Part shown: positions 1 to 8,215 of the stretch, piece after piece
How the letters are laid out: the number at the start of each line of letters is the position of its first letter
Position numbering within the stretch: position 1 is the first letter of the stretch
Source of the DNA: an uncultured Bacteroidales bacterium
Lineage (GTDB): Bacteria; Bacteroidota; Bacteroidia; Bacteroidales; ML635J-15
Assembly (NCBI GenBank): GCA_937899245.1
Contig: CALDKB010000047.1
Span: 8,884 to 72,883 of the forward strand
Direction: 5' to 3'
Length of the DNA stretch: 64,000 bases
Program-made: the position numbers and the translations under genes
The notes under the pieces: model-generated
Databases searched by the model: none
What the model saw: only the letters and a program-made list of their open reading frames with translations
What the model was told of the DNA's origin: nothing

Positions 1-1190
1 TCAGCCATTGTGACATCAAGCGACGAAAGGAAACGGCTTCTAACATCGGGAAGCGTATCCACTTCTTGCTTTATCTTGTAGCCCGTTCGCAGTCTGTAGC
101 GCGAATGTGAAATGCCAGCCGACAGGAATGTCTTGCTGCCAAGTATGCGCTTGTATTGTACCGATGCCATCACATTCCCCCACATATAACCAAGACGGAA
201 CTGCTGTGGATTCACATAATAACCTGTTTGCTTTTTGCTTCGCAATCCAAGGTAGTCGTCACCGATATAAAGGTTTACAGTAAGCTTGTCCTTGTCGGTA
301 GAACTCCACGAAAATTTTCCGTTTAGGTCGTAGAAACCATATCCGATAAGATAGTTCTGGTCGGCTAGATAAGATGCAAAGAGCAACAACGCGCCAATCA
401 TAGTCTTTCGTGCGCATACTATATAGCTTGAGTTTTTCAGTCCGGCAGGACCTTCAGCCGTAGCCGAAATGTCAGTAATACCGACATGCAGCGAACCGCA
501 ATGCTTGTTCTTGTTGCCTTCCTTCTGGGTTATGTCAACAATCGACGACAATTTGCCACCGTATCTTGCAGGGAATCCGCCCTTGTATATGCGTATGTCG
601 TTTATTATGTCGGGGTTGAAGGTTGAGAAAAATCCACCGAGATGATTTACATAAATGATAGGAACATTGTCGAAAAGGTACATGTTTTCGCCAGGATTTC
701 CACCTCTTACATTCAATACGCTTGTGCCTTCGCGCTGGGTGCTGATTCCTGGCAAAAGCGACATTCCCTTTGCAATGTCGGGCTTGCCACCCATTGATGG
801 AAGTTCGGATATTTCCTTTATGCTCATTTCCGACACATTACCGCCCTGCTTTCTGCCCTGCGCCATAACTGTTACCTCTCCTAGCATCTGCCTGTCGGGT
901 GCAAGCGAAATTCTGAGCGGAAGTTTTGTTTTTGCATCTACCGTAAGCCTTTCGGTTGCATAGCCTATGAACGATACCGAAACTTTTGCAGGCAACATGG
1001 TATGAAGGCAGAAATATCCAGAATTGTCGGTTACGCTCCAGCTATTTCCTGCGCTATCCACCACATTCGCACCAATAAGCACCTCGCCGGTTTCGGCATC
1101 GGCGACTATACCCGAAACCGAAACCTTGTTCTGGCAGATTGCAGCCAAGGTAATGCACGATAAAATCAATATTGCGATTAGCTTTCTCAT
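1..1190 (-). CDS. TonB-dependent receptor, N-terminal part only (gene runs off the left edge)
   Basis: Absent from the ORF track because there is no stop in the window. My minus-strand translation from the ATG at 1190-1188 gives MRKLIAILILSCITLAAICQNKVSVSGIVADAETGEVLIGANV... (signal peptide plus carboxypeptidase-regulatory-like domain). A plug-like stretch follows: PSMGGKPDIAKGMSLLPGISTQREGTSVLNVRGGNPGENMYLFDNVPI...IYKGGFPARYGGKLSSIVDI. Both parts are collinear with the 948-aa receptor at 2771-5617. The start overlaps the upstream stop (ATGA). Confidence 0.8.
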   Translation of the reverse strand, partial: MRKLIAILILSCITLAAICQNKVSVSGIVADAETGEVLIGANVVDSAGNSWSVTDNSGYFCLHTMLPAKVSVSFIGYATERLTVDAKTKLPLRISLAPDRQMLGEVTVMAQGRKQGGNVSEMSIKEISELPSMGGKPDIAKGMSLLPGISTQREGTSVLNVRGGNPGENMYLFDNVPIIYVNHLGGFFSTFNPDIINDIRIYKGGFPARYGGKLSSIVDITQKEGNKNKHCGSLHVGITDISATAEGPAGLKNSSYIVCARKTMIGALLLFASYLADQNYLIGYGFYDLNGKFSWSSTDKDKLTVNLYIGDDYLGLRSKKQTGYYVNPQQFRLGYMWGNVMASVQYKRILGSKTFLSAGISHSRYRLRTGYKIKQEVDTLPDVRSRFLSSLDVTMA

Positions 1191-2095
1191 CGTTGCCATA
1201 TATTTGGTGGATAAATTGTGTCGGTATGCTCGGTATATGCCGCAAATACTCCTAAACCGTTTTCAACATTCGAGTAAACGTTGAACACTACTGGATTGTC
1301 GATAATACCTTCGGAGTAGCGACCTTCATAATATAGGTAGTGCATTCGAGTGAACTTGTAGTAGTTCTCGTCAACAGCACGGAATCTCACAAGCAATGGA
1401 CGGATTATTTGGACTAGAGTATCGTTGTAAACTGCCCCGCCATGGACATGAGTCATAAACTTGAGCGTGACGGAGAAGTTTTCACCAGAAGCTAATTCGT
1501 TGGAGAACAGCGGCAACGGCAGTCCTTCGTTCTTGATAATCGGGTCGGTTATATCCAGAAGAGATGTCCCACCATAATGATCATATCCTTCTACTGTATA
1601 AATCTTTATCTCGTAATATTTGCGCTGATTTTTAATATTGCCGATAGTAGTAACAACTCCTTGCAAAAGTTCTCCAGAATCATCAACTCCCGCATTTGCA
1701 ATATATTCGAAACCGAGTGGAATTTCTTTCTGTGGCACTATGCAATGACACCTGGCGGTATCGCCATTATATGCAACCACACATTCAAGGCTATCGTTCT
1801 CGTTGGCTACAACAGTAGAAACATAATAGCCGTCGCCTTCGTAGCTTAAAGTTTCGGCAAGGTTTCCGTTTATATACAGATTAACCGCTGCATTATCTAC
1901 AAAGGCAAGGGTTGAATCGTTTATGTTACCCGTGAGCGAAACATTTACCAACAGCGGCTCGCCGGCCTTCGCTATTGAGTTTACCGTTATCTTCTGCGGA
2001 TAGTCGGGAAACTTGTCGGTTACGACCTTGCGGCAGGAGGATAATCCTGCAGCAAGTATGGCAACAATAAATATGTAGGGTACAAAGTTCTTCAT
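1187..2095 (-). CDS. DUF4249-family outer-membrane lipoprotein (302 aa)
   Basis: Lipoprotein signal (LAAGLSSC). The C-terminal signature YSNVENGLGVFAAYT is what I associate with DUF4249. Paralogous to 5614-6585. 4-nt ATGA overlaps on both sides. Confidence 0.7.
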   Translation of the reverse strand: MKNFVPYIFIVAILAAGLSSCRKVVTDKFPDYPQKITVNSIAKAGEPLLVNVSLTGNINDSTLAFVDNAAVNLYINGNLAETLSYEGDGYYVSTVVANENDSLECVVAYNGDTARCHCIVPQKEIPLGFEYIANAGVDDSGELLQGVVTTIGNIKNQRKYYEIKIYTVEGYDHYGGTSLLDITDPIIKNEGLPLPLFSNELASGENFSVTLKFMTHVHGGAVYNDTLVQIIRPLLVRFRAVDENYYKFTRMHYLYYEGRYSEGIIDNPVVFNVYSNVENGLGVFAAYTEHTDTIYPPNIWQR

Positions 2096-2649
2096 TTTGT
2101 CAGGAATCTAAAGCATAAGCCGAAATTTATAACATTCTGGAAATTACTTCTTTTAGGTTTGCCCGTAAGCATAAAGCCCCACCTGTATTCAAGATTAAGT
2201 CCTATGTGCTTTGCAAAATAAATGGAGGCTCCCAATCCGATGTCATCGCAGAGGTAGTAAAACACTCCATACGACTTAAAATAAATAAGGTTTACGGAGA
2301 AAACATCCGTTACATATACGCAAACGCGGAAAAACCTATTGTCTGGCTTTATGAAAAACGGCAATATGTGGAAATTGTTCTTGATTCCTACGAAATGTGT
2401 GCCTCTACCTAATGATTCTTTGCTTAGGCTATAGTACAATCCTGGTTCCCAGAATTTAGTCACACCATAGCAAGCCGACAGCGAAAAAGCATCTCTTCTT
2501 ACCCTTTGGACTTCTTCGTTCATTAAATCTCGTTTCTGCAGTGTGTAAGAAACATCAAAATAAAGTCTATCCTTAATATAGGCAGACTTCTGTGCAAAAG
2601 CCAACACGCTAATAGTGCTAAGAAAATATAGTAAGAACAAATGTTTCAT
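2092..2649 (-). CDS. small predicted outer-membrane beta-barrel-like protein (~185 aa)
   Basis: The ORF track gives 2092-2676. The internal Met at 2649 (MKHLFLLYFLSTISVLAFAQK) yields a clean signal peptide with Gln at +1. Alternating aromatic/hydrophobic strands and a C-terminal ...NFGLCFRF. Distant paralog of 6582-7178 and of the tail of the 948-aa receptor. Confidence 0.5.
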   Translation of the reverse strand: MKHLFLLYFLSTISVLAFAQKSAYIKDRLYFDVSYTLQKRDLMNEEVQRVRRDAFSLSACYGVTKFWEPGLYYSLSKESLGRGTHFVGIKNNFHILPFFIKPDNRFFRVCVYVTDVFSVNLIYFKSYGVFYYLCDDIGLGASIYFAKHIGLNLEYRWGFMLTGKPKRSNFQNVINFGLCFRFLTK

Positions 2650-2673
2650 ACCATCTTGTTTATTATTACCTAG

Positions 2674-2681
2674 CAAAGGTA
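2674..2681 (-). promoter_or_regulatory. candidate Bacteroidota -7 box (TAccTTTG on the minus strand) for the second cassette
   Basis: The plus strand reads caaaggta, which matches TAnnTTTG on the minus strand. It lies 25-32 nt upstream of the ATG at 2649. Confidence 0.35.
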
Positions 2682-2770: not shown

Positions 2771-5617
2771 TCAGAAATTCACATTCATTCTCCACGTCAA
2801 CACGTGATACTTGTTGTCGATGATTTTGCGTGGCGAGAACTTGTAGAAGAAATCCAACGAAATTCGCTTGCGGAACATGTTTACCGAAATACCCGGAGCG
2901 GCATAACCCGAGAAATAATCCGACTTTTTGATTCCCGCATTTGCGCCAGCGGTTTCCTCCTTTACGTGTCCATAGTAGGCAGACACTTCAAGGAACGGAT
3001 GGAAGTATTTCAGATATGGATATTTTACACGGCACAGCAGTCCGTAACGGGTATCGAATGTAGTCCTTGATACTTTGGTGTTTAGTTTGCCATTATCGTA
3101 GAAACCCGAGAACTCCGCACCTACCGACAAGTAATCGAATATTCCGTAGGTGTATCGTCCAGCAAAAACCAATGGCTTATAGAATTTCATGTCACCGAGA
3201 TAAGGATTTATCTGGAAACCAATAGAATGTCTGTGGAAAATTTCCTGAAATTCCTTTCGTGATTCCAAATATGGTCTTACGCGTTCGAGTAAACTTGCAG
3301 TGTTGAAATTTACACTATACGATATTGCTGGCATGAAGGGGAATATACTTAACTGATGCATATTGCCACCATAATCAATATAGTACAGATATGGATTCTT
3401 TCTATTATAAGCATTTATTACACTAAGAGTCAAAGTTCTTTCACCCCAGTGCAACGACTTTACGAAATTGAAACCAAGATCGAGACGATGATAAGGCTTC
3501 ATCCTGTAATTATAAATTTCATCATATACATAAGAAAACCTTCCGTCTTCGTTGTACATATATCCAACGGGAACGGTTATAGGCGCACCTGTTGCTATTG
3601 CCCAGTTTGCCGAAATTGAGAACTTGTTGCTTATCGCCCAGTTGAGCGAAATGCTGAAACTGTGCGTGCGGTCGTTGTCGGCAAGGAAGTACTCGCCTTT
3701 GTTTATTCCTTCGAACTGCCTTCTGTTTCGCGATAGCGAATATCCCATGAAACCTGTGAGACTTCCGCGAGTCTTGGTTAGCAAAAATTCTATTCCCATT
3801 GCCTTTCCATTACCTCCGGTAGCAAGCAGGTCGAGGTCGGTGATGTTTTCGATCATGCCTTCAACCGAAATATTACGCTTCATCATGGCAAGGTTCGACA
3901 TCTTCTTGTAGTAGGCTTCGATTGATGTTTCGAGCATTCCGTCAAGGAAACTGCGGGCTATGCCAATATCAAACTGGTCCGACTTTGCCGGCTGAAGTTT
4001 TCCAGTCGAAACTATCCATCGGTCGGCATAAATGTTCATCACATTGCCAGTAACGCATTGTATGTTCTGGTGTATCCGCGAATATGCCAGTTTTATTGTG
4101 AATACCTTTGGAATACTGAACGTTACTAAAGCGCGTGGTTCGGGCTGCCAGTACGACTTTTCCCCACCGATGTCGTAATAGTGCACCATGCGGAATCCAA
4201 TATTAGAAGATACGTATTTCCCGAAATACATTTCGCCAAGAATATATGCCGATGTTTCGTTGGAATAGATGTGAGATGCATGCTTTTTGTCATAGTACAC
4301 AAGCGAATCGTTTACATAACTTTGCAACTTTGTGCTATATGGCATCGACACGAAAAACGATTCGGAAATTCCAGCACGGAGCACCGATTTCCCCCACATT
4401 TTCCAACTTATGTCGGCAGCAAGGCGGACATCCATTATGTTTACCGCATTTTTGAACACAATAGAAGATATTGAATCGTGGTTATATGTGTCGTTGAACT
4501 TTGCAAGGCTCGTGCTGTGGTAGTCGGTGAGGCTAAGATTTATGCGGCTGGTGGTTCGGTCGTCGAACTTGTGGTCCCACTTCAGCGATGCCATCTTGTT
4601 GCCACCCGAAATTCGAAAACGCGAAACATCACGTTTCCCATAAACATCGTTACCGATTTTGTAGATGTCATCGCCAATGTAAGTTCCGAAACGCAAAGTG
4701 TTCTTATCGTTGAACTTATGGTTTATCTTGAAGTTTAAATCCCAGAATGTGTAGGCTATTTTCTGGTCGTGAAGAAACAGCGAAGAGGCAGGATACATAA
4801 TGAGGTCGTACATAAAACGGCGGATGGAAAACAGCATCGAGGTCTTTTTGTTTTTCAATGGACCACCGAGGCTCAACTTGCAGTCGAGCAGACCGATGGT
4901 AAGGTTTCCGCGCGTCATGTCCTCCACATTGCGTGTCTCCACCTCCATAACTGATGACAACCGTCCTCCATAATTGGCAGGAAATCCGCCTTTTATCAGG
5001 TTGGCGCTTTCAACAATGTCGGCATCGAATGTCGAAAGGATTCCACCAATGTGGTTTACGCTGAAAAGCGGAGTTCCGTCGAGGATGTAAAGATTTTGAC
5101 CGAAGTCGCCACCACGCACGCTTATGCCAGCACGACTTTCGTTACCTGCACCTACGCCCGGCATCATCTGGAAAGCTCGCATTATATCTGGCTCGCCACC
5201 TATGGAAGGAATGTATTTTATCTGTTCGCCTGTTAACCGCATTGTACTCACTTCCAGACGTTTTTCTATCGGCACTCTTTCAATTACAGTAACTTCCGAC
5301 AAGGTATGCCCCTGCTTCATTATTATGTCGAAATGCGTGTTTTTGTTGAGTTTCAGTGCGAACATCGTTTCGGTATAGGAAACGTGCGATACGTTTATCA
5401 GTACGCTGTCACCATTTTTGAAATACATTTCGTAGTAGCCGTATTCGTTTGACGAAGTGCCCTTGCCCGAATACACGTCGCTGAGGTTTGCATCGGCAAT
5501 ACGGTCGCGCGAACCTTCGCACACAACATATCCCGACAATTTCACGTCCTGCGCCGATGCTAGACAGCAAAACATTATCAGCATTGCCAATGTCAATATG
5601 TGCTTTACTTTTTTCAT
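2771..5617 (-). CDS. TonB-dependent receptor (CarboxypepD_reg + plug + barrel) with an extra ~177-aa C-terminal small-OMP-like domain
   Basis: 948 aa. Signal peptide ...CLASAQD, CarboxypepD_reg-like N-terminus, and plug motifs (IPSIGGEPDIMRAFQMMPGV, VRGGDFGQNLYILDG, GGFPANYGGRLSSVMEV). A canonical barrel terminus ...PAISYSVNF is followed by 177 more residues that resemble the 198-aa protein. Confidence 0.85.
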   Translation of the reverse strand: MKKVKHILTLAMLIMFCCLASAQDVKLSGYVVCEGSRDRIADANLSDVYSGKGTSSNEYGYYEMYFKNGDSVLINVSHVSYTETMFALKLNKNTHFDIIMKQGHTLSEVTVIERVPIEKRLEVSTMRLTGEQIKYIPSIGGEPDIMRAFQMMPGVGAGNESRAGISVRGGDFGQNLYILDGTPLFSVNHIGGILSTFDADIVESANLIKGGFPANYGGRLSSVMEVETRNVEDMTRGNLTIGLLDCKLSLGGPLKNKKTSMLFSIRRFMYDLIMYPASSLFLHDQKIAYTFWDLNFKINHKFNDKNTLRFGTYIGDDIYKIGNDVYGKRDVSRFRISGGNKMASLKWDHKFDDRTTSRINLSLTDYHSTSLAKFNDTYNHDSISSIVFKNAVNIMDVRLAADISWKMWGKSVLRAGISESFFVSMPYSTKLQSYVNDSLVYYDKKHASHIYSNETSAYILGEMYFGKYVSSNIGFRMVHYYDIGGEKSYWQPEPRALVTFSIPKVFTIKLAYSRIHQNIQCVTGNVMNIYADRWIVSTGKLQPAKSDQFDIGIARSFLDGMLETSIEAYYKKMSNLAMMKRNISVEGMIENITDLDLLATGGNGKAMGIEFLLTKTRGSLTGFMGYSLSRNRRQFEGINKGEYFLADNDRTHSFSISLNWAISNKFSISANWAIATGAPITVPVGYMYNEDGRFSYVYDEIYNYRMKPYHRLDLGFNFVKSLHWGERTLTLSVINAYNRKNPYLYYIDYGGNMHQLSIFPFMPAISYSVNFNTASLLERVRPYLESRKEFQEIFHRHSIGFQINPYLGDMKFYKPLVFAGRYTYGIFDYLSVGAEFSGFYDNGKLNTKVSRTTFDTRYGLLCRVKYPYLKYFHPFLEVSAYYGHVKEETAGANAGIKKSDYFSGYAAPGISVNMFRKRISLDFFYKFSPRKIIDNKYHVLTWRMNVNF

Positions 5618-6585
5618 CTGCGCATTATCGTGTCAGTCATTGTGGAATATGAAGCAAAGATGCCATATCCGTTTTCGATGTTTGAGTATATGTCAACAGG
5701 AATAGAGGAAAGGGTCTCTCCGTTTGCTAAATCTTCGAAAAAATCCTCTTCATGATATTCCTGCATCATACGGCTACGACGATATTCGTAGTACGATTCA
5801 GAAATGGACTTCACGGTGATTTCAAGGTCATATTTCGCCATTGCAACGTACATCAAGTAGTTATATATGACTTCCAAATTGTGGTTGCCGCTGCTGAAAT
5901 AGTCGTCAGTAAAAAGCAGTACTCTGTTGTTAAAAGGTAGACATTCGCTTTGCGTAAGCACCTTGTCGGTATTACGAGAACTATTGAAATAAATCCATTC
6001 ATATTCAACATCGTATTTGTCGCTTACAGCCCTGCAACTCATCTCATAAAAATTTCGCGATGGGATAGTGTCTTTTATCGTGAGGCTTAATCTTGACAAT
6101 GGATAACCTTCTTCGTCAACGGTAACAGTATCGCGAAAACTCATGTTGCTGAGCACAGGCATGTTGTACAATGTTGTTGTCGCCTTACATTCCTTATAGC
6201 CCGGAGCATTTACCACTAGTGTATATGTTGAACCGACCTTGGGGTATTTGTCCGAAACATAATAACCTTCGCCTTCATATTCTAGAGAACAGAGTAACAC
6301 ACCATCCTCGTATATCAAAACAGAAGCATCTTCGATACAATACTTTGGCTTTGGCACATGCAGGGAATATATATCCCCATTTTCTTGGGTATCATTCACC
6401 ACGTTATATGATTCTGGTGCAATTGGCATTACAGCGGAGATACTCACGCTAATAGGCGATTCGGGAGTAATTATAGAGTTTATTACTATGGCAGGCTCCA
6501 CATCGGGAAAGTCAAACTCGATTTCCCGATTGCAGGAGGAGAGCATTGCAAGCAAAAAAAACAATATTGAAATCCTTATTTTCAT
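5614..6585 (-). CDS. DUF4249-family outer-membrane lipoprotein (323 aa)
   Basis: Lipoprotein signal (LAMLSSC). C-terminal YSNIENGYGIFASYS signature. ATGA overlaps with both neighbours. Confidence 0.7.
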   Translation of the reverse strand: MKIRISILFFLLAMLSSCNREIEFDFPDVEPAIVINSIITPESPISVSISAVMPIAPESYNVVNDTQENGDIYSLHVPKPKYCIEDASVLIYEDGVLLCSLEYEGEGYYVSDKYPKVGSTYTLVVNAPGYKECKATTTLYNMPVLSNMSFRDTVTVDEEGYPLSRLSLTIKDTIPSRNFYEMSCRAVSDKYDVEYEWIYFNSSRNTDKVLTQSECLPFNNRVLLFTDDYFSSGNHNLEVIYNYLMYVAMAKYDLEITVKSISESYYEYRRSRMMQEYHEEDFFEDLANGETLSSIPVDIYSNIENGYGIFASYSTMTDTIMRR

Positions 6586-7178
6586 TTGCTGTTGAAGTTA
6601 TAGCCGATACGCCATGAGAAATATATCTTATGCTCTCCGATATTGCCACGATTCGAAAAATTGCACATTAAATCGAGTTGCAGATGATTCTTGAACATGT
6701 GAAAAGATATGCCAGGTGCGCCATAAATGCAAAATGAGTTAGTAATGGAACATTGGTTTTCAGAACCATAACAACCTTTGTTGTATTGTGTCCAATACTC
6801 ATATCCGACGAACAGTTCGACAAATGGGCGCACATAGTAAAAGCGATTTAATGAAGCCTTTCCAAATATTCCCGAAGTTATGCTATGCGATAAAGTAGTC
6901 CGTTGCTTCCATGTCCAAGCATAAATGTTAGCCCCGACACAAATATTTTTGTGTACTTTATAATTGTAACTTAACCCGAAATCGTAGGCATATCCGTTGT
7001 TATAAAAGAATTTATGATAACCCCTGATGTTCTTGGCTTTAGTGATGAAGTGGGGATTAAACCTTATACTGATATTGTGCTTGTATTCAAATTTTTCGTG
7101 TTGCTGCTCTTGTGCAAATGATACATTTGCAACAAGAATCAGCAACAAAAAAATGATATTTCTCATGCCTATTTGCAT
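6582..7178 (-). CDS. small predicted outer-membrane beta-barrel-like protein (198 aa)
   Basis: Signal peptide ...NVSFAQE (alternative start MRNIIF at 7166). Aromatic-rich alternating strands. The C-terminus GAPGISFHMFKNHLQLDLMCNF...YFSWRIGYNF parallels the receptor tail AAPGISVNMFRKRISLDFFYKF...LTWRMNVNF. Confidence 0.5.
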   Translation of the reverse strand: MQIGMRNIIFLLLILVANVSFAQEQQHEKFEYKHNISIRFNPHFITKAKNIRGYHKFFYNNGYAYDFGLSYNYKVHKNICVGANIYAWTWKQRTTLSHSITSGIFGKASLNRFYYVRPFVELFVGYEYWTQYNKGCYGSENQCSITNSFCIYGAPGISFHMFKNHLQLDLMCNFSNRGNIGEHKIYFSWRIGYNFNSK

Positions 7179-8215
7179 AAATTAGGATTACATGTTAGGT
7201 TAACTCGACCAGTACTCGGTGTACTTGCCCAAGAATCTATTGAGCCAATATGCATCTGTGGAGCTACTGTAACGTTCCATTTTTGGTGGTATATCAAATC
7301 ACCCTCTAACTTAGAGTCAAGAGTTCCTGAATTTGCGTAATGTCCTGTTTGATATGACCAAGTACCCATACAATACATATCAGCTCTGGCATTCAAGTCA
7401 CAACTTATTGTTCTTGAGCACCAAAACCATGCACCCGTCTTTTTTAGCGGTCTAATTAAATAGTGAACAATAAATAAAGCTGTTTGGCTTTGGCAATATA
7501 ATTCTTGGTAAACTTGTATACGGGTTTTATTATTTCCATTAATAACTTCGTTTTCCATCCCAGTTCCACAATTATATGCCGCATCTCTAATTTGTTCCGT
7601 TTTGTGATAAAACAATCTTTTGTACTTTGCTGTATCTTCCAAATATTCGACAAGATTAAGTGTTGTTATGTTCTTCATTTCGTCTTTTAAAGAAACATCT
7701 CCAATTATATAGTCGTTTCCGATATATTTGTACAAATCATTATCAATCTGAAACATCATATCCTTGTTCAGAAAACAACTGAAAGGAATGGCATCTGATT
7801 TAACATCCATTACATAGTCGCCTGCACTATCTTTTGACATTACTATATAGTCACTATATGTTTCTGCAATGTTTCTAAATTCTTCAACTGTATTAAAACT
7901 CTCAAAATCAATAGATTTGTACAGTTCTTCGCAAGTGCGCGCATACGAACAGAAATTTTTCCCTTTTTCATATTCGGCTTTTTCTTCCTCCGACAAACTA
8001 TAGTATTCTTTTAGCTGTTTTTGAAAATCTTCTATATTTTCAAATTTAAAAATGTTGCTAGATGCTGTAACTAGCTTTTTTGTGTCTAAGCTTTCTTCTT
8101 TTTCACAACTACAGTTAAACATTGTTAATGCACACACTACCATTACGTAAATGGCAACCTTTAATAAATCAATTCTTCTCATATTATTAATATGTTTTAA
8201 ATTAAACACACACAA
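7169..8215 (-). CDS. hypothetical Cys-rich secreted/lipoprotein (348 aa), first gene of the cassette array
   Basis: Long ORF, visibly AT-rich. The N-terminus (likely true start MRRIDLLK at 8182) has a hydrophobic segment ending FNCSC. About ten Cys in the mature part. No family recognised. Confidence 0.55.
   Translation of the reverse strand: MCVFNLKHINNMRRIDLLKVAIYVMVVCALTMFNCSCEKEESLDTKKLVTASSNIFKFENIEDFQKQLKEYYSLSEEEKAEYEKGKNFCSYARTCEELYKSIDFESFNTVEEFRNIAETYSDYIVMSKDSAGDYVMDVKSDAIPFSCFLNKDMMFQIDNDLYKYIGNDYIIGDVSLKDEMKNITTLNLVEYLEDTAKYKRLFYHKTEQIRDAAYNCGTGMENEVINGNNKTRIQVYQELYCQSQTALFIVHYLIRPLKKTGAWFWCSRTISCDLNARADMYCMGTWSYQTGHYANSGTLDSKLEGDLIYHQKWNVTVAPQMHIGSIDSWASTPSTGRVNLTCNPNLCK

Follow-up and report, generated by a model that had tools for sequence, protein, structure and literature searches.

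Within the window analysed here (a 64,000-nucleotide stretch, positions 8,884-72,883, of contig CALDKB010000047.1, here C47, in a 2.98-Mb assembly from an uncultured Bacteroidales bacterium), one gene, at 2771-5617 on the minus strand, encodes a 948-aa protein in which a TonB-dependent transporter (TBDT) continues in frame into a second, small outer membrane barrel. This fusion is genuine and arose once, and purifying selection has preserved it in a transporter clade of Bacteroidales. In public records, proteins of this type are named just 'TonB-dependent receptor' and their second barrel is unannotated. The genes of the locus all lie on the minus strand, with neighbours overlapping by 4-10 nt, and are given here in the order in which they would be transcribed, together with the parts of the fused gene (OMP, outer membrane protein; ORF, open reading frame; AF2, AlphaFold2).

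7169-8215, minus strand: Cys-rich lipoprotein of ~348 aa (lip348), first gene of the operon, taken from the ORF list
6582-7178, minus strand: small OMP of 198 aa, a stand-alone mini-barrel paralogue; signal peptide present; 4-nt overlap with the start of the DUF4249 gene
5614-6585, minus strand: DUF4249 lipoprotein of 323 aa, a putative transporter lid; PF14054 E=3.1e-28; 4-nt overlap with the start of the fused gene
2771-5617, minus strand: fused gene, 948 aa; signal peptide, CarboxypepD_reg-like domain, plug, predicted 22-strand barrel, linker and predicted 8-strand barrel
3305-5617, minus strand: TBDT part of the fused gene, aa 1-771; ends ...SYSVNF, with F771 in 65/65 aligned sequences
3233-3304, minus strand: linker, aa 772-795 (~25 residues); low-confidence at 773-780, predicted alpha-helix at 780-794, no hydrophobic stretch
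2774-3232, minus strand: C-terminal 8-stranded mini-barrel, aa 796-948; ends ...WRMNVNF; recognised from AF2, Foldseek and dN/dS
2092-2676, minus strand: small secreted protein of 194 aa, in the small-protein slot of a second cassette, after a spacer of ~100 nt
1187-2095, minus strand: DUF4249 lipoprotein of 302 aa, second cassette; PF14054 E=1.9e-19
3-1199, minus strand: unfused TBDT of the second cassette, with its N-terminal 399 aa in the window; 781 aa in the genome, at C47:7737-10082

The fused gene and its family

In the 948-aa ORF, the transporter part ends at F771 with ...FMPAISYSVNF and the frame then stays open for a further 177 aa, to ...WRMNVNF948. The preliminary description of this DNA had read F771 as a canonical receptor terminus followed by an in-frame extension, and the alignment bears this out since the F771 column is the C-terminal end of 44/45 unfused relatives (770-830 aa) and is occupied by Phe in every sequence aligned. 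The 948-aa protein matches Pfam Plug PF07715 (E=1.2e-8, 35.8 bits for a cutoff of 23.9) and CarbopepD_reg_2 (E=3.8e-7). The aromatic β-signal that closes a TBDT is thus present and invariant as ...SYSVNF771 but is internal, with 177 residues after it, and this is the one departure of the fused protein from the TBDT family, the remaining TBDT being complete. The fused TBDT has no NCBIfam SusC match, which places it outside SusC/RagA (TIGR04056), and its partner gene is DUF4249, not SusD. The closest unfused TBDTs are all ≤36% identical to it.

The extension (aa 772-948) had been claimed to resemble the 198-aa protein encoded at 6582-7178, and it is indeed of the same family. BLASTP aligns the two over the whole mature length (E=2e-11, 24% identity), and their Smith-Waterman score of 122 compares with 34 ± 6 for shuffled sequences (n=1000, z=14.6), none of the 1000 shuffles reaching 122, which disposes of a chance similarity. 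When 1.8 billion representative proteins were searched exhaustively with phmmer, 63 clusters of relatives came back, three of them fused (948, 944 and 954 aa) and ~58 of stand-alone proteins, 180-230 aa long, whose signal peptide ends ...A-Q and whose last residue is Phe. Motifs of this mini-barrel family are IGxQxNPY, PFxExSxYY, YxAPGIS and SLDLMYKFS. The extension itself has no signal peptide, as had been noted: over its first 30 aa the 12-aa Kyte-Doolittle mean does not exceed 0.04, whereas that of the 198-aa protein reaches 3.18, and the extension aligns from directly after the signal-peptide cleavage site of the family, so that the linker occupies the former place of the signal peptide.

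Neither the extension nor the 198-aa protein matches a Pfam family. PF13505 (OMP_b-brl) gives a weak match in 23/58 family members (E≤1, best 2.1e-7); the mini-barrel works like the proteins of PF13505 and is distantly related to them, but is not a member by the curated gathering threshold. A sequence-profile search of the PDB with the mini-barrel family gave no match, and only fold comparison did (see below). A class-wide genome search for the family yielded few, weak matches among the 8 candidates scored per genome, a depth from which no absence outside the family can be concluded.

Fused proteins of 944-958 aa form 18 clusters with 62-91% identity in the extension which, with P0022, P0023 and P0124, makes 21. 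Overall identity drops to 47% in P0022 and P0023 and to ~37% in P0124, and is 47% in G001. These clusters are drawn from ENA, JGI, NCBI and Logan assemblies. An intact fused frame is present in 12/39 genomes of the genus, assembled independently, and in 0/18 genomes of four sister genera, four of these having free mini-barrels only. Conservation across the junction extends to the codons, which show synonymous differences, and F771 and F948 are both invariant among fused proteins. In phylogenetic trees the TBDT parts of fused proteins group in a single clade (support 100), as do their mini-barrel parts (SH-aLRT 98), and no free member is nested within the fused clade of the mini-barrel tree; both halves being monophyletic, the simplest reading is a single old fusion. 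The ratio of nonsynonymous to synonymous divergence (dN/dS) is 0.06-0.20 in the mini-barrel and 0.07-0.11 in the TBDT part; some pairs are close to saturated at synonymous sites. Wide conservation, single clades and low dN/dS together exclude an assembly error or a dead tail for practical purposes, and the fusion first seen in one contig can be taken as natural.

Which free paralogue of the genus gave rise to the fused domain was considered as well, and the mini-barrel tree does not resolve it. Synonymous divergence (dS) along the fused gene proved to be a mosaic when the window (2771-5617) was compared with L031, L033 and L036: relative to the fused gene of this genome, dS is 0.36 in the TBDT part and ~1.0 in the mini-barrel for G021 and G003, and 1.40 and 0.43, respectively, for G019. 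Such a pattern suggests recombination, its breakpoint lying close to the junction.

Predicted fold and the linker

AF2 was run separately on the full-length protein and on the extension, each with an alignment of its own, for the extension that of the mini-barrel family; a joint alignment of TBDT and stand-alone mini-barrels was not used, since in it the short sequences were dispersed over the length of the long ones. The extension is predicted to form one helix and then eight strands (predicted local distance difference test (pLDDT) 91.7; predicted TM-score (pTM) 0.81), and the best PDB matches of this model in Foldseek are the OmpA transmembrane domain, OmpX, Ail and NspA (E 2e-7 to 1e-4, TM ~0.55-0.65). 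The predicted mini-barrel accordingly has the strands, the termini on the same side and the terminal Phe of an 8-strand barrel. Structure prediction of the full 948-aa protein (mean pLDDT 80.4) agrees with the two modules originally proposed, with a TBDT fold, a low-confidence stretch (pLDDT <50 at 773-780), the linker helix and then the same eight strands, and its Foldseek matches are PirA, FpvA, FecA and FhuA (E ~1e-21 to 1e-20, probability 1.00). The TBDT part is modelled as a 22-strand barrel, an assignment made from the AF2 fold and the Foldseek matches rather than from a strand count on coordinates.

The TBDT part and the extension each align end to end with single-barrel proteins and have separate strand sets in the AF2 models, as expected of a multibarrel protein, and the linker of ~25 residues, with its helix at 780-794, falls within the range catalogued for such proteins (median 22 ± 13 residues; Solan et al., PNAS 2021, PMC8346858). 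One merged 30-strand barrel was envisaged and rejected in view of the AF2 helix and separate strand sets, the complete TBDT part and the long linker. Conservation among fused proteins is lowest at the outward hairpin tips L2 and L3 (0.50-0.54) and reaches 0.94 in the periplasmic turn T2; it is 0.91 at aa 772-779 (consensus NKVSLIER) and 0.82 in the linker helix, for a TBDT barrel average of 0.84. Variable outward tips set against a conserved T2 and linker make a topology-like pattern.

The linker is also the place where a two-barrel polypeptide could come apart. The fused protein might be a polyprotein-like precursor, exported by one signal peptide and cleaved in the linker to give two separate OMPs, in which case the fusion would provide co-export and a 1:1 supply only. 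A linker start (772-779) more conserved than the TBDT barrel average and of very low pLDDT would fit a processing site, and both barrels have retained a terminal Phe. However, neither a protease site nor a protease family can be recognised, the computationally catalogued multibarrel OMPs with similar linkers are read as covalent (PMC8346858), and the same conservation would equally be expected from docking of the linker on the transporter or on the β-barrel assembly machinery (BAM). Such a precursor strikes us as unlikely.

Gene order and the probable partners of the mini-barrel

Conserved synteny supports a functional link between mini-barrel and transporter independently of the fusion. The recurrent order in the genus is a lipoprotein of ~350-385 aa (at some loci), one to five mini-barrel genes, DUF4249 and TBDT; the succession mini-barrel > DUF4249 > TBDT is found in G018 and G022, whose 792-aa TBDTs are unfused, as well as in G021, G002 and G008, whose TBDT is fused. 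In the window the DUF4249 gene adjoins the fused gene and is co-oriented with it, which is the arrangement of a DUF4249-lidded TBDT. DUF4249 was proposed to be the lid of non-SusC TBDTs on the ground that BT2173 and BT2172 show cofitness (Price et al., 2023, bioRxiv 10.1101/2023.03.17.533168), and the lid role of the 323-aa protein is putative, by analogy with that pair. For distant members of the mini-barrel family, five metagenomic contigs are informative on gene context (four further ones, of ~1 kb each, are not), and 4/5 have the mini-barrel directly upstream of DUF4249(/TBDT).

L048: mini-barrel > DUF4249 > TBDT784
L050: mini-barrel > DUF4249, after which the contig ends
L051: lipoprotein > two mini-barrels > DUF4249 > TBDT
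L052: mini-barrel > DUF4249 > TBDT
L044 (P0125): neither DUF4249 nor TBDT near the mini-barrel gene

The preliminary description had called the fusion direct evidence that the two components act together. Synteny, in the genus and on four of these five contigs, corroborates the co-action, but the word 'direct' was too strong since what the joining of neighbouring genes demonstrates is that their products are compatible and co-localised, and not that they touch.

Several observations weigh against the mini-barrel being a component of the transporter. The distant family member P0125 has no TBDT or DUF4249 nearby and, conversely, the nearest DUF4249/TBDT relatives in other taxa (L054 and L055) have no mini-barrel. 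The association is not universal within this genome either, C48 carrying a TBDT > DUF4249 pair only. On C51 of the same genome, a lipoprotein-type ORF of 353 aa (lip353) lies just upstream of a third mini-barrel gene, with no TBDT nearby, which suggests that the mini-barrel may primarily partner the lipoprotein, not the transporter. Finally, stand-alone mini-barrel genes persist at most fused-gene loci, as many as four of them upstream, so that the fused copy is not a simple replacement of a free one.

These observations lead to the alternative that the true partner of the mini-barrel is the ~350-aa Cys-rich lipoprotein, or the neighbouring cassette, and that the fusion is an accident of gene order. 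Repeated lipoprotein + mini-barrel pairs in G018 and the C51 pair speak for the lipoprotein, and the cassette is brought in by G011, where omp194 > DUF4249 > TBDT781 has a free family member upstream of it, in the position held here by the fused domain. However, the fused domain is kept where no second cassette follows it (G002, G008 and L056), and DUF4249 (in L048 also a TBDT) follows the mini-barrel in L048 and L050 with no lipoprotein of that family present. Its long covalent link to one TBDT clade, moreover, indicates that proximity to the transporter is at least tolerated and probably used. We give this alternative little credence, about as little as cleavage in the linker.

Lipoprotein-type ORFs (~330-385 aa) precede mini-barrel genes at several loci, among them 7169-8215 in the window, C51:53459-55446 and L051:1704-2702. 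Homologous lipoproteins stand before mini-barrel genes in G018, G003 and L051: by BLAST, lip353 of C51 has relatives in G018 and L051 (E=7e-35) and lip348 has one in G003 (E=4e-23). Between lip348 and lip353 themselves tblastn detects no similarity (1e-3), though both N-termini are lipoprotein-type, and the ~350-aa lipoproteins have no Pfam or NCBIfam family assigned. In L052 (1258-2603), two more small proteins, of 227 and 221 aa, are encoded after the lipoprotein and before the mini-barrel gene. Their N-termini resemble signal peptides and their C-terminal ends those of barrels, but the mini-barrel profile does not match them; the small-protein slots of these operons hold more than one family. 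Tandem arrays of four to five mini-barrel copies are found at G448:C50:15413-18330, G443:C20:50508-53119 and G451:C1:1047953-1050700, those of G443 and G451 lying upstream of a fused transporter, and one of the copies in G451 has an in-frame TAA. The divergent fused protein P0124 (954 aa; L056:2042-8865) is preceded by four tandem DUF4249 genes (300, 301, 302 and 322 aa) with no free mini-barrel directly upstream, and a 265-aa ORF farther upstream ends ...NFSIKYNF and resembles a TBDT C-terminal fragment. In L054 (1058-11150; a Flagellimonas record), a closely related DUF4249 > TBDT cassette lies between a phage-type integrase and a resolvase plus reverse transcriptase, and may be carried on a mobile element.

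The second cassette of the window ends in an unfused TBDT that is 30% identical to the fused one and has the C-terminus ...SYKVYFGRK. Its 194-aa protein, which the preliminary description had also named for alignment with the extension, shows no detectable similarity to it (BLASTP E=4.5; hhalign probability 2%; shuffle z=0.3). Orthologues of the 194-aa protein occupy the same slot upstream of DUF4249 in G021, G003, G019 and G011. The TTG listed as its start probably lies too far upstream, and its signal peptide begins with the ATG at 2649 (MKHLFLL...). The Bacteroides -7 promoter consensus is TAnnTTTG, and TACCTTTG at 2674-2681 (minus strand), within the spacer after the fused gene and ~25 nt upstream of this ATG, fits it by eye. 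The second cassette may thus have its own promoter.

Proposed mechanism and place among known systems

Overall, the evidence makes it probable that the fused gene encodes one two-barrel polypeptide (TBDT, linker and mini-barrel), the product of an old and selected fusion, in which the mini-barrel has an accessory-subunit role. A TBDT barrel ends, and an 8-strand barrel begins, on the outer membrane's periplasmic face. With both linker ends periplasmic, the two barrels would be inserted side by side, joined by a periplasmic linker that contains the helix, and the invariant internal ...NF771, together with a terminal Phe for each barrel, suggests that BAM recognises and folds each of them on its own. 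The mini-barrel would then probably serve as an accessory subunit of this lidded transporter class, packing laterally on the 22-strand barrel, with its variable L2/L3 hairpins and its conserved L1/L4 loops exposed at the surface. These loops could be a docking site for the DUF4249 lid or for the ~350-aa lipoprotein, or a first substrate-binding site, and the fusion would set one mini-barrel copy at 1:1 stoichiometry beside the transporter. A stronger version, in which the mini-barrel is an obligate third subunit (TBDT, DUF4249 lid and 8-strand barrels) that positions the lid or the lipoprotein and BAM folds both barrels in succession, is conceivable but doubtful.

As for its origin, the fusion probably arose by a deletion across the boundary of neighbouring genes, most likely in a tandem cassette array, that would have removed the stop codon of the TBDT, the spacer and the signal peptide of the mini-barrel. 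Such a deletion could also have left a neutral or decaying read-through, the tail being a tolerated passenger that no longer folds. Multibarrel fusions are frequent and lineage-restricted (PMC8346858), and the fused form is indeed confined to 12 of the genomes of the genus and missing from the sister genera. However, a dN/dS of 0.06-0.20 over saturated synonymous divergence, an invariant terminal β-signal Phe and family motifs, retention from a single origin down to ~37-47% identity and a confident barrel model make a passenger very improbable. The possibility that the ORF is an assembly or sequencing artefact or hides a missed stop, and that a TBDT gene is really followed by a mini-barrel gene, is negligible: such genes do adjoin separately in the same loci, but the same open frame recurs in 12 independently assembled species genomes and 21 clusters, codons across the junction are conserved and differ synonymously, and the second part has neither a signal peptide nor a start codon context.

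The preliminary description had also considered an OMP with two barrel-like modules unusual, which holds, but it is not without precedent. In a computational catalogue of 34 multibarrel architectures, 27 include an 8-strand barrel, and one, the 22-8 family, comprises 99 proteins, mostly from Rhizobiales with four other proteobacterial orders (Solan et al., 2021). The fused protein resembles this family in having a 22-strand barrel followed by an 8-strand one, a linker of ~22 residues and a terminal signal for each barrel, and in being a fusion, specific to a lineage, of barrels that occur singly too. However, the 22-8 family is proteobacterial whereas the fused protein is found in Bacteroidales, where free homologues of its mini-barrel are encoded in the same operon. 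Since multibarrel families are endemic to single phyla (PMC8346858), the fused protein is almost certainly the result of an independent event and common descent is unlikely; its 8-strand part having no Pfam match, it would probably have been missed by the seed-based search of Solan et al. A literature search found no paper pairing 'TonB-dependent' with 'multibarrel'. The architecture itself is thus known, and the two-barrel TBDT of Bacteroidales is almost certainly a new, independent example of it.

Other known systems illuminate one or the other half of the protein. The PagP-LptD multibarrel (Solan et al., 2021) likewise joins two different barrels thought to serve the same process, a link of the Rosetta-stone type, but differs in its barrels, in the process (LPS biogenesis) and in phylum. 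BT2172/BT2173 of B. thetaiotaomicron share with the fused TBDT and its neighbour a non-SusC transporter with CarboxypepD_reg, plug and barrel beside a co-oriented DUF4249, and binding of the lid to the outer face and its need for transport were put forward in that species from AlphaFold-Multimer and cofitness (bioRxiv 10.1101/2023.03.17.533168). However, no mini-barrel is described there, whereas here DUF4249 comes before the TBDT, one to five mini-barrel genes come before DUF4249 and one mini-barrel is fused to the TBDT. The mini-barrel itself is predicted to be, like the OmpA transmembrane domain (1BXW, 1QJP), OmpX (1QJ9), Ail (3QRA) and NspA (1P4T), an antiparallel barrel of 8 strands whose hairpins are long and which ends in Phe, although its sequence is only 10-15% identical to theirs and it has no periplasmic OmpA_C domain.

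The fusion ties a small OMP family that has no above-threshold Pfam or NCBIfam assignment to the DUF4249-lidded non-SusC TBDTs of Bacteroidota. Together with gene order, it argues that these transporters may work as a three-component machine, with a barrel-type accessory subunit besides the lipoprotein lid. The route by which BAM inserts multibarrels was left open by Solan et al. (PMC8346858), and a chain of 22 plus 8 strands is a natural substrate for asking whether BAM uses internal β-signals and takes barrels one after another. Successive folding of both barrels by BAM, if true, would answer the question of how multibarrel proteins are inserted.

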